DNA of 64,000 nucleotides from an uncultured bacterium (GCA_965372715.1 CBDVDH010000015.1:2779-66778), one strand, 5' to 3'. Positions 15,332 through 62,659 are shown, counted from the first letter of the stretch. Notes: generated by a model not told the origin, from the letters alone. Program-made: numbers and translations.

Positions 15332-16948
15332 GTGCAGGCCGAGGCAGCTGGTACTGGGTGTTCACAATGGCGCGGAGGGGCGAAAGCCCTTGCGGTCGCC
15401 ATATTGGTGCTGGCGGCGGTCGTTCGGCTTTGGGGGCTGGGTGAGCAGAGCATCTGGCAGGACGAGGCTTATTCGGTGGTTCTGGCCCGGCAGGACGTTG
15501 GCGCAATCGTAGAGAGGCAGGTCGAGGACTCCTCGCCGCCGCTTTATTACCTGCTGCTGCACATCTGGATACGGATGTTCGGCGATTCGGAGCTCTGCGC
15601 CCGGCTCTTCTCCGCCTTGTTGGGCATCTGCCTCGTCGCGGCGACGCTGCTGATCGTGTCAAGGCTGTTCCGACCGGCCGTCGGGCTTTGGGCGGGTGCG
15701 ATGCTGGCCGTCGCACCGCTTGCGGTCTATTACTCGCAGGAGGCGCGAATGTATTCGCTGACGCCTCTTCTGGCGATCATCTCAGTGTATCTTTGCCACC
15801 TAATGGCCGAAAGGCCGTCCCCGAAGCGAGTGGCTTGGTTCATCGTCGTCACGGCGGCAATGCTCTACACGCAGAACTACGGCGTTTTTGTCCTGCTGGC
15901 AGAGGGGCTATACGTTTTGGCGAGGCGAAAGGAGAGGCGGGATGCGCGGCCGATGCTCGCGCTGATGGGCGTGGTCGGGGCGTATCTGCCGTGGGTTCTG
16001 GTGTTGAGCCGCCAGGTGGCGCAGAACACGACGCCCTGGATACCGAAACCCCAGGGGCGAATGCTCTTCGAGACGCTCCTGCACCTGACGTTCAAGAGCT
16101 GGCGCCTGCCCACGACCGCGTTCCTAAATGCTCTCTGGGGGATTGGCCTCGTGGCTTTAGCGGCACTCGTCGTCTCGGCAGTGTGGTTGGTCATCCGGGC
16201 GAGGCGCTCGGGGGATGCGTCTAAACAGGAAGCGATCTGGCCGGCGCTTCTTGTATTGTCCTACACGTTCGTGCCCATCGTCTGTGCGTTCATCGCATCA
16301 TACAGCAAGCCGATCTATGTGCCGGGGCGATACGACACAATCGTTCAGCCAGGGCTTTTCATACTCGCTGGTCTTGGCCTTACGGCAATCCGTATGAAAC
16401 CGCTGAGGAAGGCGCTCGGTGTGCTGATGTTCGCAGTGCTCGTTATCTCGCTTCATTCGTATTTCACAACGTATTGGAAGAGCAACGACCGGGAGATTGC
16501 GGACTACGTTGCGCGGAACGCGACAGCGAGCGACATTGTCCTTTTCACCGACCTGACGATCACGCCATTCATATATTACCGTCCAGAGTCGAGCCTCACG
16601 ACGCTTCGGTTCCCGCGAGGGGGACTGGGTTGGACGCCGAAAGGGGCCTTCACGAACGACGTGGCCTTCTTCGAGGACGAATTCAGGCTGATTGTGCAAA
16701 GGATGAGCGCGCTTTGGCCGCAGAAGAGCCGCTTGCTGGTCGTGTTCAAGCCCTCGCCAGTGCTCTATCAACGCCTCAAGTCCCGGCTGCACGAGGAGCG
16801 GTGGCTTCGATTTGAGCGGCGCGTTCCATTCAAGATGGGGCACAACGCCGAGAATCAGGTGAGCGACATCCTGATCTTCAGCATCCTCGAGGCGCCGCCA
16901 GTCTATCCTCGGACAACGAATGACGTCACGGAGACCGAGATGAGATAA
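15332..16948 (+). CDS. GT-C fold glycosyltransferase (PMT/ArnT-like, GT39/GT83)
   Basis: SIWQDEAYS, PPLYYLLLHIW, YYSQEARMYSL and multiple TM helices. Confidence 0.88.
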   Translation: MQAEAAGTGCSQWRGGAKALAVAILVLAAVVRLWGLGEQSIWQDEAYSVVLARQDVGAIVERQVEDSSPPLYYLLLHIWIRMFGDSELCARLFSALLGICLVAATLLIVSRLFRPAVGLWAGAMLAVAPLAVYYSQEARMYSLTPLLAIISVYLCHLMAERPSPKRVAWFIVVTAAMLYTQNYGVFVLLAEGLYVLARRKERRDARPMLALMGVVGAYLPWVLVLSRQVAQNTTPWIPKPQGRMLFETLLHLTFKSWRLPTTAFLNALWGIGLVALAALVVSAVWLVIRARRSGDASKQEAIWPALLVLSYTFVPIVCAFIASYSKPIYVPGRYDTIVQPGLFILAGLGLTAIRMKPLRKALGVLMFAVLVISLHSYFTTYWKSNDREIADYVARNATASDIVLFTDLTITPFIYYRPESSLTTLRFPRGGLGWTPKGAFTNDVAFFEDEFRLIVQRMSALWPQKSRLLVVFKPSPVLYQRLKSRLHEERWLRFERRVPFKMGHNAENQVSDILIFSILEAPPVYPRTTNDVTETEMR

Positions 16949-18552
16949 TCCCTTCCGGAGGCTGTAAGCGCCGCCGCGAACTTGTATTGCCCGGTGGGAG
17001 TTTCAACCGGGACGGTCAGCTCGAATACCGTGGCCGGGCCGAAGGTGAAACCAGCGGGCAGGGCGACGTTGGTGAGCCACGGTCGAGCATCCGCGTCAAA
17101 TCCACCGTTGACCAAATAGGCTACTGCCCCGTCGGGCAATACAAATGCCAAATAGAGATCGGCAGAAAGCTGAAGCCCTGCATTCTGAACAGCTATCGAG
17201 CACTGAATACTGTCACCCGGTGCGAAGCTTCCGCCGTTGAGGTACGACTGAATTGCGAGGTGAACGGGCGCGTAGTGATAGCCGATATCGACTCTATTCA
17301 TGTCCAGGGCTCCGTCGGTTTGGGTCGTGAGACTCGTAAGAAAGAGTATCTTGGGCACTTCGGCGCCGGCGTCTATACAGGGACTGTTCGTGTCCTGACC
17401 GGCGCCCAGGCTCGAGAGATAATGATCGCCGATGGGTCCCTCTACGAAGAGCGGGTCGCCGGATACGTTACCTTCACCGCCGTGAGCCCAGCCACGAATG
17501 CACGAGTAGGAGGGCGTCGAAATGCCGAAGAACTCGTTCCCGTCACCTGGGCTATTACCCCATACGATGCAGTTTGTGATGGACCCGTAACTGCTGCACA
17601 ATCCGGCGCCGAGATCAGCGGAATTGCCACTGATCGTGCAGTTGGTCAGCCCTGCCTCACAGCTATACAGCCCTCCGCCACGTAAGGCGGAGTTGCCCGT
17701 GACGAGGCAGTTAATGATGGCGGCGTAGCAGGAATAAAGCCCGCCACCGCTCTGCTCGGCAACGTTGTCCGCCACGACGCAGCTCGTGATCGTCCCTACA
17801 CAGCCGCAGACGCCGCCTCCGTAATCGGCGGAATTGCCGGCGATGACCGAATCGGTGATTTCCCCATCGCAATAATACACGCCCCCACCGTATTCCGCCG
17901 AGTTGCCGCTGACGGTGCACCCCACGATCTCGCCGTTGCAGCGGAACAGGCCGCCGCCGCGCCCCGCGCGATTGCCCTCGATCACGCAGTCTGCAATCTG
18001 CCCGTGGAAGCCATATATCCCGCCACCATAATACTGCGCCTCGTTGTCGCGGATGTCGCAATCCACGACATCGCCGTTAGAAAGATACATCCCGCCGCCG
18101 TACTTCGCGCAGTTGCCGACGATTGTGCAGTGTTCGACCCGAGCTTGGGTCCGAATGTCAGCGTAGAAGCCCCCAACAATCCCACCGCCATTGACCGACT
18201 CGCCATTCTTGACAGTGAACCCAGCCAACAAGCAGGACTCGTCTTCAGTGCCATCAAACGTAACGACAGTGCCTGCCTTGCCCCCATCAATTATAGTTGA
18301 GGCAACAAAATCGTCGTCACCAGGGTCCAACGATTGAAGGATGATGTTCTTGCCGTTATATCGCAGATTCTCCCGATATGTCCCAGGATGAACCACTATG
18401 ACGTCCTGGTCCACTGCCACGTCAATGGCGTCCTGGATTGAGACAAAATCGGCCGAACCATCGAGATTCACCTGGTATTCCGCCGGGAAGGCCGGAGCGT
18501 CACAAATCGAGATGGCTAGCAGAAGACTGAAAAGCGGAGCCTTGAGGTTCAT
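16903..18552 (-). CDS. Secreted right-handed parallel beta-helix repeat protein with shared C-terminal domain
   Basis: Signal peptide, SIQDAID...VHPGTYREN, about 9 repeats of GNSAxxGGGxxxCxGxIxxCxI, SPCIDAG, C-terminal ~115-aa domain. Confidence 0.85.
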   Translation of the reverse strand: MNLKAPLFSLLLAISICDAPAFPAEYQVNLDGSADFVSIQDAIDVAVDQDVIVVHPGTYRENLRYNGKNIILQSLDPGDDDFVASTIIDGGKAGTVVTFDGTEDESCLLAGFTVKNGESVNGGGIVGGFYADIRTQARVEHCTIVGNCAKYGGGMYLSNGDVVDCDIRDNEAQYYGGGIYGFHGQIADCVIEGNRAGRGGGLFRCNGEIVGCTVSGNSAEYGGGVYYCDGEITDSVIAGNSADYGGGVCGCVGTITSCVVADNVAEQSGGGLYSCYAAIINCLVTGNSALRGGGLYSCEAGLTNCTISGNSADLGAGLCSSYGSITNCIVWGNSPGDGNEFFGISTPSYSCIRGWAHGGEGNVSGDPLFVEGPIGDHYLSSLGAGQDTNSPCIDAGAEVPKILFLTSLTTQTDGALDMNRVDIGYHYAPVHLAIQSYLNGGSFAPGDSIQCSIAVQNAGLQLSADLYLAFVLPDGAVAYLVNGGFDADARPWLTNVALPAGFTFGPATVFELTVPVETPTGQYKFAAALTASGRDYLISVSVTSFVVRG

Positions 18553-18699
18553 TTTGTCTCCATCGATAGCTATAACAGCTTCATCCTAGCCCAGTGTGCG
18601 CTAGTCTGGCGGCAATGCCAAAGGATTCTCTTCCAAGTCTCTTCTCTTATTGGTAAGAATACCTCGGATCGTGCTTGACCTTCGATACCTACATCGTGC

Positions 18700-20742
18700 A
18701 TGATCATAATGTATCCTAATCCGGAGGGTAATTGTATGACCCGTGCTCGGCACGTAGAATGCCTAACACTTGTAGCTGTTGGTTTGTGCTTCTGTTGCCT
18801 AACCGCTCTGGTTGGTGCACAGCCATCTTTGGATGCTAGCGGCTTCTCGATCAGGTTCTTCGCCGAGAAGGTCCACTACATCACCTGGGATCGGTTGAGG
18901 CTCTACGTGGAGATTTGCCCGCCTCAGGAGGATGTTGCCGTCGATGTGTATCTTGGTCTGGGCCTGCCGGACGGGAGGTTATACTGCTTGCTTCCGGACT
19001 TGTCATTCTCGGGCCTGATGATCGAAAAAGGCAGCCTGGTCGAGGCCAGCTGGATGGGTTCCCCCTCTCCGGTTTCCGCAGCGAGAGGCTTTCATATCAA
19101 GCGGAATGGTATGGTTCCTAAGACACTTGTCTTTAGGGCCATTCTTAGGCACGATCTGAGCCTGCCTGAAGGTGAGTATTGGCTATGGGGAATGCTGACT
19201 CCTGCTGACACTCTCCAGCCCATCACGTTCAGCGCCGAATCGTTCACTTTTGACCCGCAGCACTGCACCATCTCCGGTCAGATATCCGATGAGAACGGGC
19301 CCGCCTCGTCCGCGACGGTAAAGGTGCGCGCCTCGTCAAATGAGGTTCTGAGCGATAGAGATGGTAGATTCGTTCTTGAGGGTGTTCCATGCGACGTGCG
19401 ACTCGACGTCTCCGGCTGGAAATACGAGTATTATTGCACCGCTGCGCAGGTTCTCACGCCAACCACTAGCGTCGTGCTAAAGCTAGACCCGATAACCCCG
19501 GTTGATAACGAGGAATATGAATGGGTGCCTCCTATACCGTCCGTATCCGACCACCAATTCAACTGCATGAAATGCCTTACCCCGGCGTTTGAGCAGTGGT
19601 CCGCCAATTTCCACGCTCGCTCCGCCAGCAATGAGATATTCCAGACGCTTTACACCGGGGCCGACGTTGACGGGAACCCTGGCGTTGGGCTTGGCTACAA
19701 GCTCGATTTTCCAGAGACGGCAGGCAGCTGCGCGCTTTGCCACGCTCCCTCAGAGGCGCTCAAATCGCCATACGATTCGGATATGGCTAATCTCAGTCTG
19801 CTGGGTCAGCAAGGCGTCTTCTGTGATTTCTGCCATAAGATCATCGACGTTGACCTGTCTAACCTGGGCACGGTCTATGGCATTAACGCAATTGAATTGC
19901 GCCGTCCGTTCGCTGACCGCTGGATTGTGCTGGGACCAATCAAAGATGCCGGGCGCATAAGCACCTTCCTGCCCCTGATGAAGAAAAGCGAGATATGCGC
20001 TCCGTGCCACGCCTGTGATTTCTGGGGCGTGCCGACCTATACTTCATATCCTGAATGGGAAGCCAGCGAATACAAGGAAATGGGCATACAGTGCCAGGCG
20101 TGCCACTACAGGCCGGACGGGATCACCAAGAACTTCGCTCCTCTCAGCCACGCGCAGGAACGTGACCCGGACACCATCCCTTCTCATCTCATCATGGGCG
20201 AGGACAACATCTCGTTGCACTACGAATCCGCGATACTATCAATTGCGGCCTTAAAGGAACCGGATGATCGCCTTGTGACGACAGTCGAAGTGTTCAACGC
20301 CTTTGCAGGACATCATCTTCCTACCGGCAGGCCGATACGCAACATCATACTACTTGTCAACGCCTTCGATCGCGATGGCAACGAGCTCGAGTTCGTCGGG
20401 GAGCAAGTTGTGCCGATATACGGCGGCACGGGCGGCGGGCCACGGGACTTCGCCGGGCGCCCGGGGAAAATGTTCGCCAAGATACTGGTTGACCAGCTTG
20501 GCAATCACCCCGCCCCGTCGTGGCGGCAGACGATGATCCTGTCCGACACCCGCATCCCCGCGCTTCAATCCGATTTTTCAACCTACGAATTCCGCTTGCC
20601 AGTGGCTGCAAACACCGCGACGGTCGATGCGCGGCTCGTTTATCGGAAGATCTTCAAGGATATGGCCGATGAGAAAGGCTTGCAGCTCGAAGACATCTTG
20701 ATGACAACTGAGAACGAGTCATTCCATTTCGGGGGAGATTGA
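18700..20742 (+). CDS. Secreted multiheme c-type cytochrome with carboxypeptidase-regulatory-like domain
   Basis: CALCH, CDFCH, CAPCH, CQACH plus a variant CMKCL; AGHHLPTG and DTRIP motifs; signal peptide. Confidence 0.85.
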   Translation: MIIMYPNPEGNCMTRARHVECLTLVAVGLCFCCLTALVGAQPSLDASGFSIRFFAEKVHYITWDRLRLYVEICPPQEDVAVDVYLGLGLPDGRLYCLLPDLSFSGLMIEKGSLVEASWMGSPSPVSAARGFHIKRNGMVPKTLVFRAILRHDLSLPEGEYWLWGMLTPADTLQPITFSAESFTFDPQHCTISGQISDENGPASSATVKVRASSNEVLSDRDGRFVLEGVPCDVRLDVSGWKYEYYCTAAQVLTPTTSVVLKLDPITPVDNEEYEWVPPIPSVSDHQFNCMKCLTPAFEQWSANFHARSASNEIFQTLYTGADVDGNPGVGLGYKLDFPETAGSCALCHAPSEALKSPYDSDMANLSLLGQQGVFCDFCHKIIDVDLSNLGTVYGINAIELRRPFADRWIVLGPIKDAGRISTFLPLMKKSEICAPCHACDFWGVPTYTSYPEWEASEYKEMGIQCQACHYRPDGITKNFAPLSHAQERDPDTIPSHLIMGEDNISLHYESAILSIAALKEPDDRLVTTVEVFNAFAGHHLPTGRPIRNIILLVNAFDRDGNELEFVGEQVVPIYGGTGGGPRDFAGRPGKMFAKILVDQLGNHPAPSWRQTMILSDTRIPALQSDFSTYEFRLPVAANTATVDARLVYRKIFKDMADEKGLQLEDILMTTENESFHFGGD

Positions 20743-20746
20743 CAAC

Positions 20747-23590
20747 GTGGGGACCGCCTTTCAAACACTTGCCCGCAGCCTAGCATCTGGATGCCATCCG
20801 CGCTTCGGAGCGAAGTTATTCTGGAGCTTCATCCTTATCCTTCTTTGGGGGGGCCTCTTCATACTTCCGAGTGCTTGGGCTCAGGAGCCTAGACCCCACA
20901 GATGGACATCGACGTTGGGACCGCCCGGGGGGCTGGGCTACGACACACGCATCGACCCGCGCGACCCCAACATCGTCTATACAACCGACCAGTGGGCGGG
21001 CATGTGCATGAGCTACGATGGCGGCTATACATGGCACCCGAGAAACGAGGGCATCACAAGCAGATTCGGGCCGTCGCTCGACTCGGTTCCGATTTTCTGT
21101 TGCACGATTGACCCATACGACTCCAACATCGTTTGGTGCGGGACTTATGGGATGCGTGGGGTCTATAAGTCATTCGACAAGGGGGAGAGCTGGGTCAAAA
21201 TGGACCGCGGGATACCCGACCTCGAGGCGATGTCGTTCAGGTCCTTCACGATCAACCCCGACGACACAAATATCGTCTATACTGGGGTGGAGATTCCGGT
21301 CATCGGCCAGAATAAGTCGCGAGGCATGATATTCAAGACGACCGACGGTGGGGACAACTGGTTCACGGTTTTGGAGTGCGACGCCCTGGTTCGGTACATC
21401 GTGATCGACCCGGAGGACACGGACGTTGTCTATACGGCAACCGGCATATTTGATAGGTGGGACGTGGTCCCCGAGGGCATACTTAAGTCCGATGACGGAG
21501 GCGCAACCTGGTATCCCGTCAACAATGGCATCGACAACCTTGTGGTTGGGGGCCTGACTATGCACCCGTTCGACCACAACACGCTCTTCTGCGCGACGGG
21601 CCGGCACGAGGGTTTCGGCCCAGAGCCAGAGCCACGGCACGGCTCCATCCTAAAGACCACGGATGGGGGCCAGAGCTGGACGGAGATCGGGCCGGCGTAT
21701 CGCTGTTGGAACGCAGTGGAGGTTGACCGGAGCGATCCTGACATCATCTACGCATCAAGCGAATGGCAGTTTGCGAGAAGCTACGATGGAGGAGAGTCGT
21801 GGCAGACGATGCCTCTGGGCCTGCCGGACGTCTATTCAGGTGTTCCGATAACCATAACGATCGACCCCACCAACCCGGACAAGGTGTTTGTGAACTCCTA
21901 CACGGGCGGGCTGTATCTGTCTTTGGACGCCGGCGCCACCTGGATGAATGCAATGAACGGTTTCACTGGCGCCGAGCTGACCGACATCGCCATGGACCCC
22001 AACAGTCCGTCCGTTGTTTTTACCGTGGGGCGACCCGGCCCGTTCAAGAGCTTTGATGGCGGCCTCAACTGGTTGGGAACCGGGGGAATGTCCGGCGTCC
22101 AACCAAGGCCAGAGTGGTCGGCCGTTTGCGTCAAACCGGACGAGACGAACGTTGTCCTTGCTGCCGACCAGTTCTATGGGGAGCTATACAGGACTCTGGA
22201 CCGCGGGGAATCCTGGGACATCCTGCTGGTCATCATTCCGGTTGACCAGGTCCAATACCCTCTTTCTATTCAGGGGATCAAGACAATTGTCTTTGCGCCC
22301 TCCGATCCCTCGGTTGTCTATGCAGGCGCGAGGATACCCGATAAGACGATCGAGTTCGACCGAATGACCCCTTACGATACCACCCGTCCGAGCATGGGGG
22401 TCTATAAATCGACGGACGGGGGCGATACCTGGGTTCAGATGAACGATGGTCTGGAGAAGACCACAAAGAACATCAATCAGATCGTTGTGCACCCGCACGA
22501 CCCCGACACCGCCTATGCCGCGACGCTCAACTCCGGCGTTTACAAGACAGTTGACGGCGGCGGCCACTGGATTGACATAAACTTCGGGATAACCAGAATG
22601 GACATCAGGTCAATAGCCATAGACCCCAACAACACAGACGTGTTATATGCGGGGGCTGAAAACGCCGGGATATTCAAGAGTGAGGACGGCGGTTTGAGTT
22701 GGGTTCAGGCTAATGTAGGACTAGATGCCGAGGCAACCATACGTGACCTAGCGGTCGGTCCACTCAACAGCAATCGGGTCTATGCGGGCGACTGGCACAC
22801 CGGCGCATACATCTCGGAGGATGCCGGCGGGGTCTGGATGCACATAAATGAGGGCCTTGAGAACCGAGCGATAACGGCGCTCGACATCTCCGCGGACGGG
22901 TCAGTCCTTTACGCAGCCACCCAGGGCGGCGGCGTCTTCAGACTTGGGGATGTGGAGACGACGGCGACCCTCATGGGCCGGGTTCTGGATGCTGTAACCG
23001 GCGAGCCGGTTCAATCTGCGCTCGTTGCCCTTGACTCGACGACGTCAACTGTGCGAACCGACACAGACGGCAACTTCACGATAGAGAACCTGCCCGCACG
23101 AGCATACTCTCTTGACGTCTCCGCCTCGACCTACAAATCCTACCAGGAAGGCGACGTTCTGCTTATCGGGGGCCAGACTAAGATAACGGAGATAACGCTC
23201 TGTAGAAGACTGTATCCGGCGCTCTTCCCCTTGGTCAATGGTACCGTTTTCGTGCCCGGCGATACACTTAGACTCGATGCGCGCCTTGAGCACAAGGGCC
23301 CATCGATACACATCGATGTCTATCTGGCAATCGATACCCCTGGGGGATTGCTTTTCTTCGATGGTCTAGGCTTTACATCGGACATAGTGGGCTTCCCGTT
23401 TTTCGCCATGACCGGAACTGACTTGTTCTTCCAGATCGCTGAGATGTCTATTACAGAGCATTTTCCGTCAGGGCAGTACTCTGCCTATGGCGCCGTGACA
23501 ACATCCGGCGCTTATGACCTCTATTCGGCGACTAGGGCTACTTCATTTGAGGTAGCAGCATCCCAATTGAGAAACGGAGAGAACCGATAA
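20747..23590 (+). CDS. Secreted BNR/Asp-box (VPS10-like) beta-propeller protein with carboxypeptidase-regulatory-like domain and shared C-terminal domain
   Basis: More than 12 SxDGGxTW repeats, GRVLDAVTGEPVQSALV, C-terminal domain like that of 16903-18552. Confidence 0.88.
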   Translation: MGTAFQTLARSLASGCHPRFGAKLFWSFILILLWGGLFILPSAWAQEPRPHRWTSTLGPPGGLGYDTRIDPRDPNIVYTTDQWAGMCMSYDGGYTWHPRNEGITSRFGPSLDSVPIFCCTIDPYDSNIVWCGTYGMRGVYKSFDKGESWVKMDRGIPDLEAMSFRSFTINPDDTNIVYTGVEIPVIGQNKSRGMIFKTTDGGDNWFTVLECDALVRYIVIDPEDTDVVYTATGIFDRWDVVPEGILKSDDGGATWYPVNNGIDNLVVGGLTMHPFDHNTLFCATGRHEGFGPEPEPRHGSILKTTDGGQSWTEIGPAYRCWNAVEVDRSDPDIIYASSEWQFARSYDGGESWQTMPLGLPDVYSGVPITITIDPTNPDKVFVNSYTGGLYLSLDAGATWMNAMNGFTGAELTDIAMDPNSPSVVFTVGRPGPFKSFDGGLNWLGTGGMSGVQPRPEWSAVCVKPDETNVVLAADQFYGELYRTLDRGESWDILLVIIPVDQVQYPLSIQGIKTIVFAPSDPSVVYAGARIPDKTIEFDRMTPYDTTRPSMGVYKSTDGGDTWVQMNDGLEKTTKNINQIVVHPHDPDTAYAATLNSGVYKTVDGGGHWIDINFGITRMDIRSIAIDPNNTDVLYAGAENAGIFKSEDGGLSWVQANVGLDAEATIRDLAVGPLNSNRVYAGDWHTGAYISEDAGGVWMHINEGLENRAITALDISADGSVLYAATQGGGVFRLGDVETTATLMGRVLDAVTGEPVQSALVALDSTTSTVRTDTDGNFTIENLPARAYSLDVSASTYKSYQEGDVLLIGGQTKITEITLCRRLYPALFPLVNGTVFVPGDTLRLDARLEHKGPSIHIDVYLAIDTPGGLLFFDGLGFTSDIVGFPFFAMTGTDLFFQIAEMSITEHFPSGQYSAYGAVTTSGAYDLYSATRATSFEVAASQLRNGENR

Positions 23591-26500
23591 TGAACCGGAT
23601 AGACTCTGGCGTCTTGAGGCTAATGGCCATCCTGGCGATCATTGCTGTTGCGTCGGGGTGCTCGCGGGATGTTCTTGCAGACGAGGCCCAGGAAGGGTAT
23701 TCGCCTAGCATCCTGCTCGTTGACGACAGTGCGTCCTTCTTCTTGACAAGCACCGCATACTATCTCACGGAGGCGCTCGATCATATCGGCTTTGAATACG
23801 ACACGTTCAGCATAGCTGAGTCGGCGACTTCACCCAGTGTGGCTCTTCTTTCGTCCTACGAGATTGTGGTCTATTCTGTTGGCGGGAGCGGTTTCGGTCT
23901 TTACCGCGGCGAGGGCGCCAGAAGAGTCATGGCTTACCTGGATGCTGGTGGGGCACTTCTCCTCTCGGCCGGCGAGCATGCGTATCAGAACACGGAGAGT
24001 CTGCTGCTCGAATACATGCACGTCGCGTATGATTACTACACGCGACCACTTCTGATACTTGGCGCGCCGCACGATCCTATTGGGTCCGGCATGTCCTTCT
24101 CAACGGAATCACCCTTCGGCAATAGAGATTTTTTCATGCTCGTCAGGCCACTCGATGAATACGCTCAGGTCTTCATGACCATGAGTTCCGAGTCACTAGT
24201 CAATGGGGCGGCAGTTCGCCTGCCGGCCGATGGAACCACGCTTCATTACCGTGCAGTGTACCTCTCCTTTGCCCTCGAGGCGCTAGTTGACATTGAGGGG
24301 CGCCCGAGCGGCCGCGATGAACTCCTTCGTCGGATCATCCGTTGGCTACACGACACGACGCCTCCGTCAATCGTCCGCGCCTCGCCTATGCCGGATGAGC
24401 AGGCGGCTCAGACGAACCCCACGATATCGATCGAGTTGTCCGACGAGGGGACAGGAGTTGATCCCAGCAGCATTGAATTACTTGTGGATGGAGACGTCGT
24501 GGAATTCGAGACGCAGGAGCTCATGGATTCTGTCATCGTCCTCTATTCGCCGGATGAGCATCTTGCGCCCGGCTCTGAGATGGTCATTGAGATCGTTTGT
24601 GCGGATAGGTCCCCGACACCGAATCAGATGGAGTCATATCGATATACCTTCACGATTCGACCGGATGCCGTGCCGGACACCGAGCCGCCCTTTGTGGAGG
24701 ACTTCGGGCCTGCTGGTGTCGTTGAGAATCCAGCCGACCCGTTCTCGGTTTTCGCGATGATAGGCGACAACGGAACGGGCGTTGCCATTGGCAGCCTTGT
24801 GATGACGGTCAACGGCCGGGATGTCAATGCCAGTATCAAGCGCGCCGATGAGGGATGGATGATGACCTATATAGGTAAGGGAGAGTTCGGTTTGAACAGG
24901 AGTTACGACGTTGAGATAACGGGTCAGGACCTCGCCGCGCCGCCCAACGTAATGGCGTCCCATTCTTTCTCGTTCTCAATTGGCGCCGACGTGTGGCCGC
25001 CGATTCTCATCTCCACGTCACCGCCGGACGGAGCGGTGGTCGATCTCGACGAGTTGTTCGGGGAGACGTCGAGCGGGATTTCTGCCTTCATAAGGGATTG
25101 CGGCGGCCGAATAGACGCAGATTCGGTCCGAATGACGATCAACGACGCGATTGTCAGTCCCACGCTGTTCATGATGTTCAACAGCGCGAAAGTGAATTAC
25201 TACGGGAGCAGCGGTCGATTCGAGTATGGGCAGCAAGTTAGGGTGGAGCTGTCCGCAAGCGACGATGCCCCGTCGCAGAATGCAATGGAACCTGTGTCCT
25301 GGACGTTCCGTTTCGCGGAGGACGGCGCGCCGCCGAGAGTTCTCATAACAATTCCGGCCCACCAAGAGCGAGATGTGCCCCGGAATACTCATGTGTTTGC
25401 CGTCGTCTCAGATGACGTGGCGCCGGAGAGCGTATCATCTGATACGCTGCGGGTGGAGAGTGACCCGGGTGGGGTTTGGCAAGGGCAGCTGGTATATGAT
25501 CCCTACGCCGCTTGTATCCATTTCACACCCTATGAGTACTTCCCATCCGGCGCGACCGTTTCCGTCACGGTATATGATTCCCTGATGGACAGAGGAGGTA
25601 ACGCCCTGCAAGAGCCCTATCACTTTGAATTCAGAACGTCCGGTCAGTATGACTTCGATCCGCCAGATGTAACATCCTTCAGGGAGGGAAGCGTTGGCGA
25701 CAGGGCGATTAGATGCCAATGGAACGTCTCCCCAGACCCCGCCTTCTTCAAGGTCTATTACGACAGTGATGGCTGCTGTGAGCCATACGAGGGGACAGAC
25801 GCCGACCAGGGCCCCTCGCCGTTCAAGGTCTTCCGGCAAACCGCCATCGACGTTACAGGCCTAGACAACCAGAGAACCTACTACTTTGCCGTGACCGAAG
25901 TGGACGCTTGCGCAAACGAGAGTGACTATACTGTGGAGGAGTATGTGGCCTCGCCCGAAGAACTGCTCGATGCTCCCACTCTGGGCACTGTCGTCGCCGG
26001 CGCGGGCTCAGCGCTGCTTCAGTGGTCGAGGCCTGATAACCTGTTTGTGACCGGCTACCGCGTCCATTATCGAGCGATTGATGTCGAGGTCAGTGAAACT
26101 CAATCTGGTCAGGATTTCAGCACTCTGGATGTTGGGCTCACGAGGGATTATACGCTGAAAGGTCTTACAAACGGTGTTCAATATGAGCTCTTCGTGACGG
26201 CGTTCGACGAACTGGGCCAGGACGGGCACGCATCGAACGTTATGACTGTTCGCCCAGCAGCAGATGTTGACTGGTTCCAGATTGAACCCGCCGGGCCCAC
26301 GCCCTACCCGCGCTTCAATCACCAGGTCGTCCTCGACCCCGCTCGCAAGCGCGTCTATGTCTTAGGCGGAACTCCTGACTACGAGGAGGAGGACATCCTA
26401 TACGTTCTGGATCTTGAACGCCTCAGATGGGAGCAGGTGCCGACATACGGGCCTTTCCCGACGTTCGGTCGATGTCTGGCGCACTTTGATTCCGCCCGTG

Positions 26501-29961: not shown

Positions 29962-30204
29962 ATGGAAACTGCAAAAGTCGCAATCAGCATAAACAAAGAG
30001 ACCCTGAAGCGCCTCGACCGTCTCGTGAAGGAACAGGTTTTCCCCAGTCGGAGCAGGGCGATTCAAGAGGCGATTGAGGACAAGCTCAACCGGCTGGATC
30101 GCACACGCCTTGCCCAGGAGTGCGCGAAGCTGGACCCGGTCGCCGAACAGGCAATCGCCGAAGAAGGCCTGTCCGAGGAGCTGGACCGATGGCCGGAATA
30201 CTAA
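29962..30204 (+). CDS. CopG/ribbon-helix-helix antitoxin
   Basis: [18 protein letters not shown]...[11 protein letters not shown]. Confidence 0.88.
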
Positions 30205-30527
30205 GGGGCGATATACGGTGGGCCGACCTCAATCCCGTCCGGGGACGTGAACAAGGCGGGAAACGCCCCGTCGTCATAATCAGCCAGGACGTGTTCAACG
30301 AACGTTCGGGCACGGTCATCGCAATGGCGATAACCAGTCAGCCCCAAAGAGCGGGCTTCCCCTTAACACTCACCCTGGAACCATCGAAACTGCCCAAGCC
30401 ATCATGGGTCAAGATAAGCCAAGTCCGAACGCTCTCGGCCGAACGAATCGGCGAGGTTGTAGATTCGCTCTCTCCAGAACAGATGGCGCAGTTGATCCAG
30501 GGACTAAACGAAATCATAGGCGGCTAG
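30189..30527 (+). CDS. mazF: PemK/MazF family endoribonuclease toxin
   Basis: [32 protein letters not shown]...[11 protein letters not shown]; start moved to ATG 30189. Confidence 0.92.
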
Positions 30528-46178: not shown

Positions 46179-46482
46179 AGAAGACCTCGTAGCTCGAGAG
46201 GATAGCCTGCCGTCGAAACGGATTTCGGATTGCATCCTTTTCCACCAGGTCCACATCCCGACCGAAGATGTCCTTCAGCTCGTCTATCATATCCACGATG
46301 TCGAAACCGCTCCAACGGGAATCCAAAGCGAATGTCACCAACACGTCCACGTCACTTTCTGGCCCGAAATCCTCCCGAAGCACCGAGCCAAAGAATGCGA
46401 ACTCGGAGATCTTCCACTTGCCGCAAAACGCCTCGACGTTGTGCCGAGGAACATTGATACGCAGGTTTGTCATGATACTCAC
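46168..46482 (-). CDS. mntA: Minimal nucleotidyltransferase antitoxin
   Basis: FFGSVLREDFGPESDVDVLV, FGRDVDLV. Confidence 0.9.
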   Translation of the reverse strand: MSIMTNLRINVPRHNVEAFCGKWKISEFAFFGSVLREDFGPESDVDVLVTFALDSRWSGFDIVDMIDELKDIFGRDVDLVEKDAIRNPFRRQAILSSYEVFYAS

Positions 46483-52731: not shown

Positions 52732-52739
52732 TTCGCCCG

Positions 52740-53738
52740 CTACGGAAAGGAGGACGGGTCATCGAGAACGAGCATCTCGGACTCGGGCGGCGAGACGTCG
52801 AATGGCCCCGACGCCACGTTGCTGACAACGTGCTCGGGGCGCCCGGCTCGCGCGACAACAGCGCACCAAGTACAATTGCCGCCTAGTATCTCCCCCGGCT
52901 CGAACGACAGCTTCAGCCGAAACCGCAAATCTTCGGTCTGTTCCAGTTCCTCAAGAGCGATACCACGGCGCCCAGCTTCAGGCTCATAGAAAACGACCTC
53001 GCCGCTACGACCGATCAGTCCAATGAACAGCTCATATTGTGCATTGACGAGGTGATTAGCCCTGACATCAAACGTAACCTCGTAGAGCTCCCTCTGGTCA
53101 GCGACGCAAAGCTCTTTCGTTATAGCCACGTTGAACTGCACAGGCTGTTGGATACAAGACGAGGTGAGCCCAGGACGCATAACCGACCAGCTTCTCGCAG
53201 GGCCCTCCACCTCGGGCGCCATGCTGACCGGCTTCGGTTCCCAGCCGCCTATCGGACACGACGCGACTTTCGACTCGCTACCTGCGGCGCGGCGCAGCAT
53301 TGGGCCATCGAGTAGCAGCCTCTCTGGAGAAGGCTTTGGATCGCCCAGCGCCATTGCGGACGGCGCCCCGATGAAGCGATAAGCTCGCCGCATCGAGTTT
53401 TTGGCCATGTCGCTGGCAAAAAGCTCGACGTTGTATTCGCCGGTTGATGACCCGGTCGGCCTATATGAGACGCTATATCCTTGCGCTATCTTGCTGAGCG
53501 ACGGCTTAACCTCTCGTCCGTCCATGATGAGGCGGATCGATAATGGATCAACCCCGGATAGGTTGTCGCGAACACGAAGAACTACCTCGCCAGCTTCCGT
53601 CAGGTTCCCCGATCGAAGCGTGGACTGAGTCAATGTCGCCTCGCACATTGAACCTGCGCTCAGAACAATAAGAACCGCTACCGTCACATACCATCTCAAC
53701 ATGAATCCTCCCAATACCTTAAGTCGAATGTCTTGCAC
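52740..53738 (-). CDS. Secreted hypothetical protein with Ig-like domain and divergent shared C-terminal domain
   Basis: Signal peptide; VRDNLSGVDPLSIRLIMDGREV unit as in 23590-27687; C-terminal YELFIGLIGRSGEVVFY...GNCTWCAVV...FDV. Confidence 0.7.
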   Translation of the reverse strand: MQDIRLKVLGGFMLRWYVTVAVLIVLSAGSMCEATLTQSTLRSGNLTEAGEVVLRVRDNLSGVDPLSIRLIMDGREVKPSLSKIAQGYSVSYRPTGSSTGEYNVELFASDMAKNSMRRAYRFIGAPSAMALGDPKPSPERLLLDGPMLRRAAGSESKVASCPIGGWEPKPVSMAPEVEGPARSWSVMRPGLTSSCIQQPVQFNVAITKELCVADQRELYEVTFDVRANHLVNAQYELFIGLIGRSGEVVFYEPEAGRRGIALEELEQTEDLRFRLKLSFEPGEILGGNCTWCAVVARAGRPEHVVSNVASGPFDVSPPESEMLVLDDPSSFP

Positions 53739-55460: not shown

Positions 55461-55470
55461 TAAACACAGA

Positions 55471-56722: not shown

Positions 56723-58114
56723 TTGTCAGAGGTCATCACGGTTTCTCATGCGAGGCCCAAGCTGCCAGACGGGGTAGTTGAGCTTTCTCGTGCCGGTCAA
56801 TACCTTTTGCTGCACCCCAGATTGCCGAAGTTCGCGCTGCTAAACGACACCGCCCGGTTCATCGCATCCCTTTGTGACGGGCGCCGGACGAGTTCGGACA
56901 TAGCCCGGCTGGTCGCGAGCCACTACGGGATTGATGTTGACCGGGTCTCTTCTGACGTCGAATGCTCATTGAAGCAGCTTGAGGCGTCAGGGATGTTCAG
57001 CGACATGGTTCTAGACGAGAAGAGGTCTTTCGCGAGAGAAAACAAACGGGTTCATCTCACTATTACGGGCCACTGCAACCTCAGGTGCGCGCATTGCGGC
57101 ACGGTCGGTTCGCTGCACAAGGACGACGCCCTCACCACTTCAGACGTTAGATACATCGTGGATCAGTTGGCCGCAGTGCCGGGGTCCTCGATTGCGATCA
57201 CGGGAGGGGAGCCACTTCTTCGCAAGGACATTGTCGAAATCGTTGAATACTCCGCCCAACGGACAAAGACGATCGTCTCCACAAATGGGACGCTCGTGAC
57301 CGAGGAGCTTGCGAGGGGGCTCGGGCCACTTCCCGTGACGTTTCAGGTTAGTCTGGACGGTGCTACGGCGGAGGTTCACGACCCCATCCGAGGCTCAGGT
57401 GAGTTTCAGAGAGCGCTAAACGGCATCAAGCTGTTGCAGCGAAACGGAGCGGGGTCGAACGTCGAAATCTGCCGGACCGTCATGGGCCAGCCGGAGGACG
57501 ATTTTGATGCCCTGCTCGAGTTGGGTGAAAGCCTGGGAGTTGGGGGAATAAGGTTCCTTTGCCTGGCACGGTTGGGGCGGGCGGAGGACGACTACGATAT
57601 GCTCAATCCGACGTTTGGGAGCTTTCGAAAGTTCTATAAGGCTTACTTCAAGGCGATCTCTGATTCCGGCAGCAAGATTTCCGTGGGCGGCGGTATTCCA
57701 GGCCTTTACATCGACGTCCCGGACAGCACAATGTGGTGTCACGTTGGGGAGATGCTCGAGGTCGATCCGGAGGGGAAGATATATCCCTGCTCCATGTTGA
57801 ATCATCAGGAGTATGAGCTAGGCAATATCTGGGAGATGACGTTGCAGCAGGCTGCTGAATGCGATAGATTCATGCGGCTTCACGAGCTTCTCGCGGGCAG
57901 AGTCGAGAGGATCGAGGTGTGCAAGAAATGCGCCTTCAAGAACTACTGTCAGGGCGGATGCCCCGGAATGGCGCTGGTTGATAATGGGACTTTATTGGCA
58001 CAAGATGCCATTTGCGAGCTTCGCAAGGAGTTGTTTGAGGACCTTTTCTTCGAGGTTCTCCCGAAGCTCACGAGCAAACACGCTCTAAGCAGCTCTGAGG
58101 AGATTCAGATATAG
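56723..58114 (+). CDS. RRE-fused radical SAM/SPASM peptide maturase
   Basis: N-terminal RRE (LNDTARFIASLCDGRRT), CNLRCAHC, TGGEPLL, SLDG, SPASM CHVG...IYPC...CKKCAFKNYCQGGCP...C. Confidence 0.92.
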   Translation: MSEVITVSHARPKLPDGVVELSRAGQYLLLHPRLPKFALLNDTARFIASLCDGRRTSSDIARLVASHYGIDVDRVSSDVECSLKQLEASGMFSDMVLDEKRSFARENKRVHLTITGHCNLRCAHCGTVGSLHKDDALTTSDVRYIVDQLAAVPGSSIAITGGEPLLRKDIVEIVEYSAQRTKTIVSTNGTLVTEELARGLGPLPVTFQVSLDGATAEVHDPIRGSGEFQRALNGIKLLQRNGAGSNVEICRTVMGQPEDDFDALLELGESLGVGGIRFLCLARLGRAEDDYDMLNPTFGSFRKFYKAYFKAISDSGSKISVGGGIPGLYIDVPDSTMWCHVGEMLEVDPEGKIYPCSMLNHQEYELGNIWEMTLQQAAECDRFMRLHELLAGRVERIEVCKKCAFKNYCQGGCPGMALVDNGTLLAQDAICELRKELFEDLFFEVLPKLTSKHALSSSEEIQI

Positions 58115-58181
58115 CAATATCGAGGCGTGTCCGATACGCTTGGCTGTAGTTTCTTTCAAGTGAACGGTTCGGAGAGGTAGA

Positions 58182-59378
58182 TTGGCGCAACTGGTTACTC
58201 CAAGCCCCGAACAAGTCATCAAGAAGTTCGGCAAGCTCTGCGCTCACGCGGAGTACTATCGAGTATTTGAGCTCGATCTCTGTATCCGTTCTGACTCGGC
58301 AACCATCCTGTCGTATTTTGAGAAAATGTACTCGCATTTTGTTGTTCCGCCCCCGGATAAGCAGGTGCTCACTTACTACGTTATTGAGACACCGGTGGTT
58401 CGCGGGAACCCCGTCATCGTAGCTGACGACAGGGTTTACCTGGTTCGCAATCCGGACATATTACCCGGGTTTTCATACATGACTGTTTTCAACTCGTTTA
58501 TTGCCAAACTCCGGGAGCATTTTCTTATCCATTCGGGGGCCATGGAGTTCAAGGGCAACGGGATAATCATTCCGGGCGCGGCCCGCTGCGGCAAGACAAC
58601 CGTTACCCTATCGCTGATCGGCCGCGGGTTTTCTCTCTTCTCCGACGAGATCGCGGCGATTCACCGGCTCGACCACAAGGTCTATCCCTTCCCGAGGGGC
58701 CTCGGCATGCGCGAGGGAGTTGGGCACACTTTAAGGGGCGTTGACTTCGAGAGGCTCGAAACCATACCAATGATCGGTGGTGGTTTCAAACGCGTCCTGG
58801 ACATTGGTGAGCTGAAGGGAGCGCTGGCTACAGAGCCGTGTCCCGCGAAGTTCATATTCTTTCTTGTGCCATCTGTGGACGAGGACTACTCCCAGTTGGC
58901 GTCGCAGAAGGTTCTATACCTAATAACGAGTGATGTGCCCGGCAAAATGCTCGCCGAAATGGGCAAGGTTGATGGCGTTGAGTCGGTGGAGGTTACGGGC
59001 GACACCTCCGAGGCGAAGTTCCCAATCGTCCGTTTCCGCGTTCAGAGCGGCTATCCCGTCCTGGCGAAGCTGGAAGAGATATGCTACAATCACAATGTTC
59101 TGATCTTTGACACCGTCAAGGGTGAACACGTCAAACCTGACTTTGAGGGACGACCGCAGCTGACGCCAATGCCATATTCCAGGGCGATGTTTGAGCTTCT
59201 AACAAGGGCCCGGTCCGGCGCGCGCTCGGCGCTCTTGACCACCCAGTTCAAGGGAAGCGTCACAAAGATGTACCTTGCGCTCGCCGACATCGTCAGAAAG
59301 ACGAAATGCTACGAACTGGTCGTCGGCAGGCTCGACGAAATGATCGACATGATCGAAGAGACAGTTGCCGGCGATTAG
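58182..59378 (+). CDS. HPr kinase-related P-loop protein
   Basis: FLIHSGAM, Walker A GAARCGKTT, FSDEIAAI, PFPRGL. Confidence 0.8.
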   Translation: MAQLVTPSPEQVIKKFGKLCAHAEYYRVFELDLCIRSDSATILSYFEKMYSHFVVPPPDKQVLTYYVIETPVVRGNPVIVADDRVYLVRNPDILPGFSYMTVFNSFIAKLREHFLIHSGAMEFKGNGIIIPGAARCGKTTVTLSLIGRGFSLFSDEIAAIHRLDHKVYPFPRGLGMREGVGHTLRGVDFERLETIPMIGGGFKRVLDIGELKGALATEPCPAKFIFFLVPSVDEDYSQLASQKVLYLITSDVPGKMLAEMGKVDGVESVEVTGDTSEAKFPIVRFRVQSGYPVLAKLEEICYNHNVLIFDTVKGEHVKPDFEGRPQLTPMPYSRAMFELLTRARSGARSALLTTQFKGSVTKMYLALADIVRKTKCYELVVGRLDEMIDMIEETVAGD

Positions 59379-59419
59379 GTAAGAAGAACCTGATCTGCAC
59401 CTCGAAAGGGGGCTCGTAT

Positions 59420-62400
59420 ATGAAGATAACGCTCGCTTCAAGACCGTTTTTCCACCTTCTGCTGGCAGCCTCGCTCTTTGCGATGGTTTCGGGCCCAGTT
59501 TTTTGCGCCGAAATAGCGAAGGCCGTTGTGCGCGAGAGCGGCGAGAGTCATTTCCTAATTGATTTCGAGGCGCCCAGACCCACATTCGGATGGGACGAGC
59601 TTGAAGGTAATCTGTATGACGTTGTGAAGGTCGCTGGCTGTGAAAGCATCGGTGAGCCGGGCAGGCCGGATGTGCCGTTTCTGGGCTTCTTGCTTGCGGT
59701 CCCATCGGACTGCGAGCCTTCTGCCAATTGCGAATCGGCTCAGGATGAGGAGTTCTTCGGCTTTCACGTCGCGCCGAGCCCGCGGTTCGTCAGGGCGGAG
59801 CTGGGCGAGACGGTTGCTCTTGAGCCTCGCTTTGAGCTAGACGAGGAGCAATACAACACCGACGCCTACTACCCAGACTCGATCGTCGAGGCGGAGTACT
59901 TCGGGGTTCTGCGGGGGCAGCCGCTCATCCGTGTGATGGTCTTCCCGGTGAGGTTCAATCCGGTCTCGGGCAGCCTTCAGGTCATCAAGCGAGCGACCTT
60001 TACGGTGCACTTCGAGAGGGATTCGACCAAATCGCGTTGCAGCAGAGCAGGCGTTCTATATTCGGAGATTGGGTCATCGTCCAGAATGGTCGATGCGGTC
60101 AAGAGCTGCGTCGCAAACCCCGACGATGTCCAGCCCATTTTGGCCAGGGATGTCCCGGCCTCGGACCATGACGTGATACCGCTTGCGAACGGTTTGCACC
60201 AATACAAGATCGCCGTTAGCGAGGACAGCATCTACGAGGTTACGGGCGCCGACTTGGTTGCGGCGGGCATCACAATCTCGACGATCGCCCCGGACGGACT
60301 TGCGATAGGCAATCTAGGACAAGGTGTTGCGATTCTCGTCGAGGACGGCGCCGACGGAAGCTTTGATGAGTCGGACTACCTCCTGTTTTGGGGCGAGGCG
60401 CCGGAGAGCGAGTTCACGAACTACAACATATACTGGCTCGACTTCGATCGGGAAGTGGCTTTGAGAATGGAGGTTGTTGATGCTGCTCCGACCGGTGGGG
60501 CGCCGGTCGCCACGTCCTTTATCAATACACCACGATTTGAGGAGGACACAAGCTATTGGCAAAACATCCCCGACAGCGAGGGCGAGGACCACTACTTCTG
60601 GGGAGCCTATGTCCCAGCTCCTGACACCGAGACATATCCATTGGAAATCCACAACCTTTCAAGTGAGGCCTTCAACGCGACAATAATCGTTGAGTTCAGG
60701 GGAAGGACCGATATAACACGCGTTGATCCTGACCATCACACCCAGATACTGCTCAACGATCAGATCATCGATGACAAGACGTGGAACGGCCAGATCAAGT
60801 TCATTCACAGCATTACAGGTCCGCAGTCTCTGCTTCGGAATGGACGAAACGAACTGAAGGTGGAGTATCCGGGCGACCTAACGCTCGTTGACCAGGTCTT
60901 TTTCAACTACTTCCAGATCACGTATCTCGCGACGTTCGTGGCGACCGTCGGTGTGCTAGAGTTCTCGCCTCAGGAAACAGGCTTGACTGAGTTTCGAGTC
61001 AGCGGCTTTTCGTCGGACGAGATAATGGTGTTCGACGTGACTGACCCCTTTGGAGTGAAGAACCTCACGAACGTCTCTGTTGCGCCTGACGGTGACGGGT
61101 TCGCCGTGAGCTTTCAGGACGACACGTCTCCCGATAAGAGATATGTCGTCGCTCAGAGCTCAGCGTTTAGGACCGGGATGTCGCTTCAACCTGACATTCC
61201 CTCCTCTCTCATGTCGGCCGAGAACCGGGCCGACTATATCATCATCTCACACGCCAATTTCATTGAGGCAGCCGAGGGCATAGCCCAGCATCATGCGGCG
61301 AAGGGCGAGGTGGTGCTGCTGGCTGACGTTGAGGACATCTATGACGAGTTCAATTTCGGCCTAAAGAGCCCGCAGGCCATAAAGGATTTCCTGGAGTACG
61401 CGTATGAGAATTATTCACCGCCTCCTCCGACAGACGTGTTGCTCGTGGGCGATGCGGACATGGATTACAAAAACAGAGTTGGTTCGGAGGTCGATTTCGT
61501 GCCAACCCACGTTTACAACGATCCCGATACAAGGCGCCTCGGCGAGACGCCGACCGACAATTGGTTCGTGTGTGTTGATGGCCCGGACGTCCTGCCCGAC
61601 ATGAACATCGGGCGGATCTGCGCCAAACGCGCGAGCGACGTCGATGACGTGCTTGCCAAAATACAGGCTTATGACAACGGTCAGGCGAGCGGCGACTGGT
61701 TATATAGGGTGCTTCTTGTCGCCGACGGTGAGAGCGCCTCGGTTGCCATCAACCAACAACTGAGCTCGTTCTACCTGCCTGATGAGTATGAGGACACTCA
61801 CGTCAACTTCAATGACTACGGTTCAGGACAAGATGCCAATGAGGACATAATCTCAAATCTCAACGAAGGCTGTCTGCTGGTCAATTACGCGGGCCACGGT
61901 AACATAAACAGGTGGGCCAAGGGCATGTTCTCTTCAGGCGACGTGGCCGGGCTCCAAAACGGTGTTCGGATGCCGTTTGTGATAACTTTGACCTGCCTGA
62001 ACGGTTTCTTTCCACATCTGGACAGCACCGCGTGCTTGGGCGACGTTTTCATGAAAACGGCCGGGAAAGGCGCTATAGCCTCCTGGTCCCCGACCGGCGT
62101 TGACACACCCTCCAACCATTCGATACTGGTAAATGTGTTCTTCGAGTCGGTCTTCTATGATTTCAACTGCTACCTGGGCGCGGCCACGACGACCGCCAAG
62201 GTCCGGGGCTACGCGATCGCGGGATATAGCAGTTATTTCGACTGCATAGTCGAGACATTTACACTGTTCGGCGACCCCGGACTTGCACTCGCTGTTCCGA
62301 CGGCGCCGCCGGAGCCGCGTCTCACGGTCTGGACTGATAAGGAAACATATTACGCCGATCAGACTATCAACGTCGATGTGATGCTTGAGAACACCGGCGG

Positions 62401-62659
62401 CGCATCGATGCAGGTTGATGCCTACCTGGCTCTGGATTACAACGGAACGCTTCTCTACTATCCTAGCTTCGGCCTCGAGCCGGCGCCAATTCCCGTCGAT
62501 CTTCCCGCGTTTCTGAAGTTGAGGCTTCGCGCCGCCTCTTTGGCAGTGCCGAACCCGGCGCCTGCCGGGACATACGCGTTCTATGCGGCGCTGACACAGC
62601 CCGGCGACATGTCGCAGATCATCGGCGCAATAGACGCGGCGACGTTCGAGATCCGCTGA
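59420..62659 (+). CDS. C25 (gingipain/PorU-like) cysteine peptidase with propeptide and shared C-terminal domain
   Basis: Signal peptide from ATG 59420, GEPGRPDVP propeptide, ADYIIIS, DIYDEF, LLVGDA, DMNIGRI, catalytic NYAGHG and TLTCLNG, LFGDP. Confidence 0.9.
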   Translation: MKITLASRPFFHLLLAASLFAMVSGPVFCAEIAKAVVRESGESHFLIDFEAPRPTFGWDELEGNLYDVVKVAGCESIGEPGRPDVPFLGFLLAVPSDCEPSANCESAQDEEFFGFHVAPSPRFVRAELGETVALEPRFELDEEQYNTDAYYPDSIVEAEYFGVLRGQPLIRVMVFPVRFNPVSGSLQVIKRATFTVHFERDSTKSRCSRAGVLYSEIGSSSRMVDAVKSCVANPDDVQPILARDVPASDHDVIPLANGLHQYKIAVSEDSIYEVTGADLVAAGITISTIAPDGLAIGNLGQGVAILVEDGADGSFDESDYLLFWGEAPESEFTNYNIYWLDFDREVALRMEVVDAAPTGGAPVATSFINTPRFEEDTSYWQNIPDSEGEDHYFWGAYVPAPDTETYPLEIHNLSSEAFNATIIVEFRGRTDITRVDPDHHTQILLNDQIIDDKTWNGQIKFIHSITGPQSLLRNGRNELKVEYPGDLTLVDQVFFNYFQITYLATFVATVGVLEFSPQETGLTEFRVSGFSSDEIMVFDVTDPFGVKNLTNVSVAPDGDGFAVSFQDDTSPDKRYVVAQSSAFRTGMSLQPDIPSSLMSAENRADYIIISHANFIEAAEGIAQHHAAKGEVVLLADVEDIYDEFNFGLKSPQAIKDFLEYAYENYSPPPPTDVLLVGDADMDYKNRVGSEVDFVPTHVYNDPDTRRLGETPTDNWFVCVDGPDVLPDMNIGRICAKRASDVDDVLAKIQAYDNGQASGDWLYRVLLVADGESASVAINQQLSSFYLPDEYEDTHVNFNDYGSGQDANEDIISNLNEGCLLVNYAGHGNINRWAKGMFSSGDVAGLQNGVRMPFVITLTCLNGFFPHLDSTACLGDVFMKTAGKGAIASWSPTGVDTPSNHSILVNVFFESVFYDFNCYLGAATTTAKVRGYAIAGYSSYFDCIVETFTLFGDPGLALAVPTAPPEPRLTVWTDKETYYADQTINVDVMLENTGGASMQVDAYLALDYNGTLLYYPSFGLEPAPIPVDLPAFLKLRLRAASLAVPNPAPAGTYAFYAALTQPGDMSQIIGAIDAATFEIR

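Follow-up and report, generated by a model that had tools for sequence, protein, structure and literature searches.

The present analysis concerns a domain of about 110 amino acids (aa) that recurs on five otherwise unrelated exported proteins encoded in a stretch of 64,000 nucleotides from an uncultured bacterium (GCA_965372715.1, CBDVDH010000015.1:2779-66778), hereafter called the window. The window corresponds to G000:C15:2779-66778 of the genome assembly, designated G000, which comprises 3.56 Mb in 112 contigs and is 95.9% complete; in source names the lineage is labelled Candidatus Coatesbacteria. All five proteins, first named in an earlier note on this DNA, were found at their coordinates, and each starts with a signal-peptide-like segment. 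The proteins and their domain copies, four of the latter scored with the hidden Markov model (HMM) described below, are as follows:

16903..18552, minus strand: exported right-handed beta-helix protein, 549 aa (Pfam Beta_helix/Chlam_PMP), with the domain at the C-terminus
16918..17250, minus strand: domain copy 1, aa 435-545 of 549, followed by a 4-residue tail (HMM 1.1e-29)
18700..20742, plus strand: exported multiheme c-type cytochrome, 680 aa (Pfam Cytochrome_C554, NCBIfam ExtKL-like)
18853..19245, plus strand: domain copy 2, N-terminal, aa 52-182 (HMM 1.1e-15, alignment A1)
20747..23590, plus strand: exported BNR/sortilin-type propeller protein, 947 aa (Pfam Sortilin-Vps10 2.4e-35, BNR)
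23231..23548, plus strand: domain copy 3, aa 829-934 of 947, followed by a 13-residue tail (HMM 1.9e-19)
52740..53738, minus strand: exported protein of 332 aa by translation, without a Pfam family and with homologues conserved in Coatesbacteria metagenome-assembled genomes (MAGs)
52791..53090, minus strand: domain copy 5, divergent, approximately aa 217-316 of 332 (hhalign, A1 against A2)
59306..62659, plus strand: C25 cysteine peptidase with propeptide, open reading frame (ORF) of 1117 aa (Pfam Peptidase_C25, PF01364, 6.9e-81; Propeptide_C25 1.3e-18); its true start is probably an internal Met near 59420, ahead of the signal peptide
62324..62647, plus strand: domain copy 4, aa 1007-1114 of 1117, followed by a 3-residue tail (HMM 1.9e-25)

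Copy 1 starts immediately past the end motif of the beta-helix (...VDIGYHYAP), copy 4 is preceded by a PTAPPEP linker, and in the BNR protein a CarboxypepD_reg domain precedes the terminal copy. The order in the cytochrome is signal peptide, domain, CarboxypepD_reg and haem region, and the middle strands of its copy are separated by a long insertion. When the terminal pieces were compared with each other by BLASTP, the beta-helix and BNR pieces matched at E 1.7e-11 (28% over 123 aa), BNR and C25 at E 4.6e-11, and beta-helix and C25 at E 3.9e-6. The cytochrome piece was weak in this comparison (E 1e-3 over 36 aa against the BNR piece), and that of the 52740-53738 protein gave nothing under E 3.7 against the other four; nor was this protein significant with the genome-iterated HMM (0.27 per domain, 0.1 for the whole protein). 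The fifth copy was regained by profile-profile comparison with hhalign, in which a profile of the 52740-53738 protein and its 12 homologues (A2) aligned with the 44-copy domain alignment (A1) over 94 columns at 93.3% probability and E 2.7e-7, and it is therefore regarded as a divergent member of the family. Thus the earlier suggestion of one domain of about 110 aa on five proteins holds, for four of them by HMM (1e-15 to 1e-29) and for the fifth in divergent form.

The domain recurs in the genome far beyond chance. The HMM, seeded with three copies and iterated over all stop-to-stop ORFs of G000 (E <= 1e-5), converged on 131 copies in 113 ORFs. According to our own gene calls (2912 genes), 110 genes carry the domain, and their products hold 107,793 of the 1,065,163 coded residues, i.e., approximately 10%. 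It is present on 15 of the 21 largest proteins, most giants of 2-4 kaa being among the carriers, and on 75 of the 250 proteins of at least 400 aa that a crude predictor found to be signal-peptide-like and free of further membrane segments. A word-indexed homologue search with the tail of the beta-helix protein returned four orthologues, all unnamed.

The position of the domain on its carriers is strongly biased. It lies exclusively at the extreme C-terminus in 72 of the 113 ORFs and exclusively at the N-terminus, right behind the signal peptide, in 21; internal copies occur in 11 ORFs and the remaining 9 are short or fragmentary. Altogether, 102 ORFs have the domain at an end rather than between other domains. 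The proteins with C-terminal copies stop just past the last strand, with tails mostly of 3-8 residues (0-8 after the last strand), and N-terminal copies usually start a few residues from the signal-peptidase site where that site is recognisable. Fourteen copies are the upstream members of C-terminal tandems of two or three, on carriers whose lengths range from about 340 to 4250 aa, giants of more than 2000 aa being the majority. By a crude test, a signal-peptide-like start was present in 97 of the 113 domain ORFs versus 504 of the 1572 other ORFs of at least 300 aa, and of the 16 domain ORFs without one, five are truncated by contig ends. The earlier view, drawn from five cases, that exported proteins with little else in common share one module is supported, and the carriers are Sec-exported proteins.

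A tree of 124 copies placed 12 of the 21 that are N-terminal in a single clade with 14 members (support 0.85), and a further four in another clade. The N-terminal placement therefore arose only a few times and was then spread by gene duplication. Just upstream of the C-terminal copies in G000 the linkers are short, with Pro and Thr enriched 1.7-fold. No conserved tail or cleavage motif was found at the ends of the domain proteins in this genome, and a 4-mer scan of all C-terminal tails recovered only the end motif of the beta-helices and no short tag. The N-terminal, tandem and internal copies form the pattern of binding modules and not that of a single cleaved signal, so that the option raised in the earlier note, a docking module instead of a cleaved signal, fits the 21 N-terminal ORFs, the 14 upstream tandem copies and the 11 ORFs with internal copies better.

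The proteins that carry the domain, here called passengers, are diverse. In the window and the rest of G000 they include beta-helix proteins, propellers, C25 peptidases, FGE-sulfatase-like enzymes and the multiheme cytochrome, and Pfam searches on 76 of the 150 library matches listed (the first batch, up to 1700 aa) showed mostly beta-helices (DUF1565, Beta_helix, NosD, Chlam_PMP) and also FGE-sulfatase domains, propellers (PQQ, BNR, FG-GAP and Reg_prop), PKD and HYDIN-type immunoglobulin (Ig) domains and an AhpC redoxin. The library matches follow the same positional rule as the copies in G000. N-terminal copies stand mostly ahead of DUF1565 beta-helices or FGE-sulfatase domains. The beta-helix passengers end in a motif (...PCIDAG...TTQ.DG.PDTG.VDMGYHYP), which forms the very C-terminus in proteins with an N-terminal copy (e.g., C11:27532-29193 and C7:68959-72672 of G000) and lies 5-10 residues ahead of the domain in proteins with a C-terminal copy, as at about 17251-17330 of the window. 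These positions indicate that one beta-helix passenger family bears the module at either end.

Neither on the whole proteins nor on 44 isolated copies did any Pfam or NCBIfam model cover the domain. The sub-threshold Pfam hits of the 44 copies were all to E-set sandwiches (DUF4785_2nd, Arrestin_C, DUF11, MG2, NPCBM_assoc and RbmA-like_FnIII), the best being NPCBM_assoc at 3.3e-4 in one member; RbmA-like_FnIII was hit at 0.003, also in one member, and DUF11 in three copies with a best E of 0.021, which is no significant match to PF01345. CARDB (PF07705) was not among the 25 families listed of the 26 matched. An AlphaFold2 model of the C25 copy, made with the 44-copy alignment, is an eight-strand beta-sandwich (predicted local distance difference test 96.9, predicted template modelling score 0.87). 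One strand of the domain, with the pattern vDvY, bears a near-invariant Asp. Its best structural match is the FnIII domain of RbmA (Z 11.1-11.7, root-mean-square deviation (rmsd) 2.1-2.5 over 103-104 aa, 14% identity), followed by an Ig-like domain of AlkC (Z 10.9) and the N-terminal domain of a GH66 enzyme (Z 10.8), and the CARDB domain of PF1109 (3idu, 2kl6) matches at Z 10.4-10.8 with rmsd 2.3-2.4 over 98 aa, so the fold is CARDB-like. Complement and alpha-2-macroglobulin MG domains match at about Z 10, and carbohydrate-binding structures are found as well (Wzt carbohydrate-binding domain, Z 8.7; a porphyran-binding carbohydrate-binding module, Z 8.3). The match list is flat: 301 chains reach Z >= 8. 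An ESM Atlas feature search gave unnamed clusters at 0.94 and 0.90 and an RbmA-like one at 0.81, the last being a lead only. On the basis of the model and these hits, the unit is predicted to be an autonomous E-set beta-sandwich (CARDB/DUF11/MG/RbmA-FnIII-like) of an uncatalogued sequence family.

By sequence, a weak relation to the DUF11 repeats (PF01345, TIGR01451) is seen. The first half of the profile gives many weak half-length matches to these repeats in giant proteins, at 6-15 bits per repeat, and the family is therefore considered a remote relative of DUF11/CARDB with the same fold. However, no copy among the 44 scanned reaches the Pfam cut-off, DUF11 and CARDB usually form internal tandem repeats where the domain is a single terminal module, and the conserved second half (P-x-G-x-Y-x-F-x-A-A-L ... 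F) is specific to the present family. Searches of the sequence library counted 3886 cluster representatives at E <= 1e-3, 1228 at 1e-10 and 57 at 1e-30; these counts are inflated because the profile also gathers DUF11-type repeat proteins. Six of the 150 matches listed show 12-24 stretches, and the three that were inspected are DUF11-repeat proteins. One library match (P0147) of 4457 aa, named as a C25 peptidase and originating from a Candidatus Electrothrix MAG, has 13 DUF11 repeats ahead of its C25 domain and matched the profile solely via summed weak scores.

The GTDB phylum of G000 consists of seven species genomes in one family and four genera, all of which hold 44-150 matches. In a wider sample of 151 genomes, in which up to 29 candidates per genome were scored at a cut-off of 1e-8, 12 genomes were positive: the seven of the family and G012 (1 match), G028 (19), G063 (4), G072 (12) and G114 (24). 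Hence the domain was found in five of the 144 other families sampled. G028 belongs to a small phylum, where 11 of 14 genomes gave 7-67 matches each. In the loci of G028 and G012 the best-scoring copy is C-terminal in 12 of 12 cases, with tails of 3-19 aa, and a Pro/Thr-rich linker precedes four of the 11 best C-terminal copies in G028. The domain is thus not confined to one lineage. The earlier description of it as lineage-specific is only partly right, as at least five further family-level lineages have it. Its distribution is patchy, with strong expansion in a few lineages.

The reading that we prefer, with a probability of roughly 0.42, is that the domain is a portable module for docking or for retention at the surface. 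In a Coatesbacteria-like diderm it has become attached to a free end of over 100 Sec-exported proteins; after export it would stay on the mature protein and bind a shared partner in the envelope or matrix, for which a glycan or a repeated surface protein is the likeliest candidate, and a large part of the exoproteome would thereby be kept on or near the cell. The data show the family with its fold, copy numbers, positions, passengers and distribution; the attachment, the binding and the nature of the partner are what we infer here, from the placement at either end, the tandems, the internal copies, the linkers and the fold of adhesion/binding type. The absence of SLH and exosortase from G000, together with that of the type IX secretion system (T9SS; see below), leaves none of these to explain the sorting and is counted in favour of retention. 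SLH, BACON and dockerins are N- or C-terminal modules, single or in sets of two or three, which occur on dozens of unrelated exoproteins, often past Pro/Thr linkers. The domain resembles them on paper as a terminal module on unrelated exoproteins, although their folds or sequences are unrelated to it. RbmA, a scaffold of the Vibrio cholerae biofilm matrix, is likewise a secreted binding/scaffolding domain and provides the best structural match; on the other hand, the identity is 14%, the score is barely above those of many other sandwiches, and RbmA is a two-domain matrix protein and not a tag on enzymes.

Several points weigh against retention or docking. No ligand or receptor for the domain was found, and no neighbouring family was convincingly enriched within two positions of the domain genes in G000. 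As the structural match list is flat, the fold is a common one that names no function. The terminal bias alone is weak evidence, because the ends of proteins are where new domains are usually acquired, and the single-clade origin of 12 of the 21 N-terminal copies weighs on the argument from placement at either end. Moreover, a secretion signal would also fit the closely kept C-terminal placement, the number of copies per genome and the missing T9SS of the domain-positive genomes tested.

The strongest of the alternatives, which we consider possible if somewhat doubtful, is that the domain is a plain structural Ig-like domain (a spacer, cap or stabiliser) without any shared targeting role, made frequent by family expansion and by gain at protein ends. 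The flatness of the structural match list is what a common fold of this kind should give, and the remote kinship with DUF11/CARDB repeats places the domain among ordinary building blocks of surface proteins. The dominance of DUF1565/Beta_helix proteins among the passengers and the fact that a single clade makes up much of the N-terminal set are also in line with it. However, it accounts poorly for the many unrelated passengers (beta-helix, BNR, PQQ, FG-GAP, Reg_prop, C25, FGE-sulfatase, AhpC, PKD and cytochrome), for the end position in 102 of 113 ORFs, and for the same habit elsewhere, as seen in the C-terminal best copies at all 12 loci of G028 and G012.

Next in standing, and unlikely in our judgement, is that the domain is a secretion or sorting signal read by a yet-unknown outer-membrane export or attachment machinery, with a role like that of the T9SS C-terminal domain (CTD) in Bacteroidota and their relatives. 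Like the type A CTD, the domain is a small beta-sandwich that closes the C-terminal end of unrelated proteins exported by Sec, roughly a hundred in each genome and C25 peptidases among them. The exclusively C-terminal copies of the 72 ORFs, with their short tails, agree with such a role, as do the 44-150 matches per genome of the family, a number similar to the 64-104 T9SS tails in each of four of the most tail-rich T9SS genomes sampled. The cell of G000 is a diderm (Omp85, three secretins), and its large exoproteins need a route across the outer membrane.

The T9SS itself could not be found in G000. As the earlier note had stated, no T9SS CTD motif is present: neither the five proteins nor the 44 copies matched a tail of TIGR04183, PF18962, TIGR04131 or FlgD_ig type. 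G000 has no type A tails (TIGR04183) and no PorV, and neither type B tails (TIGR04131) nor SprA (TIGR04189) were detected in any of the seven family genomes, the same search having found SprA in 10 other genomes as a positive control. FlgD_ig gave one hit per genome, in an ORF of about 233 aa that, from its size, we take to be flagellar FlgD. Among 31 genomes, SprA and type A tails are confined to the same 10, and the domain is absent from each of these. Conversely, SprA was not found in the 14 domain-positive genomes (G000-G006, G012, G028, G031, G040, G063, G072 and G114), and 13 of these also lack type A tails, the exception being a single match in G005. This lone T9SS/FlgD_ig-type tail (G005:C226:3233-3472) lies in an ORF of 504 aa of an incomplete genome (83% complete) and may be a contamination or a lone relic.

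This mutual exclusion could point to a replacement of the T9SS, but it rests on about six independent lineages; a base rate of 10 T9SS genomes in 24 gives roughly p 0.04, and the choice of these lineages was not independent. The exclusivity of position in T9SS, one copy and C-terminal only, is not shared by the domain, whose N-terminal, tandem and internal copies misfit a single terminal signal. No candidate machinery was found, and no T9SS tail structure is among the top 50 structural matches listed or the Foldseek rows listed. It seems improbable to us that the domain serves as an address label for an export or attachment route across the outer membrane that is new to science and takes the place of the T9SS in Coatesbacteria and a few other candidate lineages. 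Such a route would read a folded E-set domain at either free end of its cargo and would serve about a third of the large exoproteins, giants of 4000 residues included.

The retention or docking module also has to be set against the model proposed in the earlier note, in which the neighbouring PorU-like C25 peptidase would cleave the tag, and Wzy_C and glycosyltransferase genes close by would supply the glycan to which the protein is then attached. The window peptidase does resemble PorU, the T9SS sortase (NF033707, E 2.3e-72), although its 244.1 bits lie under the NCBI equivalog cut-off of 420; Wzy_C-TPR, PMT_2 and glycosyltransferase genes are present in the window; and C25 peptidases are numerous in most domain-rich genomes (8 in G000, 6-16 in the family, 14 in G028, 25 in G031 and 15 in G040). 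Yet they are just as common where the domain is lacking, the domain-rich G072 and G114 have none, and they carry the domain themselves (three of the eight in G000, at least six of the 14 in G028), so that C25 is a frequent passenger and not a required processor. The families recurring within two genes of domain genes are B12-radical SAM, Wzy_C-TPR, PMT_2, cyclase-STAND and SPASM radical SAM. The best enrichment among them, that of Wzy_C-TPR (three of eight paralogues near domain genes), has a post hoc and uncorrected p of 0.048, PMT_2 has two of seven paralogues nearby, and no Wzx family was among the 45 window proteins scanned. With N-terminal copies that could not be removed in the manner of a T9SS tail, neither processing by C25 nor linkage to glycans finds support, and we regard this model as very improbable.

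Several other observations were made on the neighbouring genes. Genes at 4656-7889 and 15332-16945 of the window drew attention to families that are large for a 3.6-Mb genome: in G000, the fusion of Wzy_C (O-antigen-ligase-like) to TPR repeats has eight paralogues, the PMT_2 glycosyltransferases number 7 and the B12-binding radical SAM enzymes 25. Giant domain genes are flanked by STAND-type regulators composed of zinc-ribbon, adenylate/guanylate cyclase, AAA_16 and TPR, of which three of 11 paralogues lie within two genes:

G000:C22:27325-31134: STAND-type cyclase regulator
G000:C22:42991-46395: STAND-type cyclase regulator
G000:C8:31661-35113: STAND-type cyclase regulator

The C25 gene of the window belongs to a row (56723-63308) that comprises a PqqD-fused radical SAM/SPASM protein, an HPr-kinase-C-like protein, the C25 peptidase and an S24/S26-type signal-peptidase-like protein, and which is possibly a peptide-maturation set; a paralogue of the radical SAM protein (G000:C48:24561-25919) also adjoins a domain-bearing gene. 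Directly after three domain genes, a protein of 1365 aa (23590-27687) has a lipobox (VASGC), Big_5, fn3 and a Kelch propeller, with no copy of the domain. A protein of 637 aa at 48034-49944 carries a prepilin-type methylation motif at its N-terminus (N_methyl 6.4e-6), which is its sole Pfam match. Further genes of the window encode a MazF/PemK-like toxin (30120-30524), an IS200-type transposase (35954-36394), a HepT-like RNase (45819-46256) and an N6/N4 DNA methylase (46549-47361).

To our knowledge, the way in which Coatesbacteria and similar uncultured diderms assemble their surface has not been described, and those parts of the literature on Coatesbacteria and on T9SS or novel sorting in candidate phyla that were available to us hold no account of such a domain. 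The domain provides a handle by which the exoproteome of these lineages can be defined from sequence alone, and a new family model could annotate thousands of metagenomic proteins that are now "hypothetical". It also offers a way to seek the partner that reads it, whether a glycan, a scaffold or a channel. If that partner were a translocon, it would represent a new secretion route.

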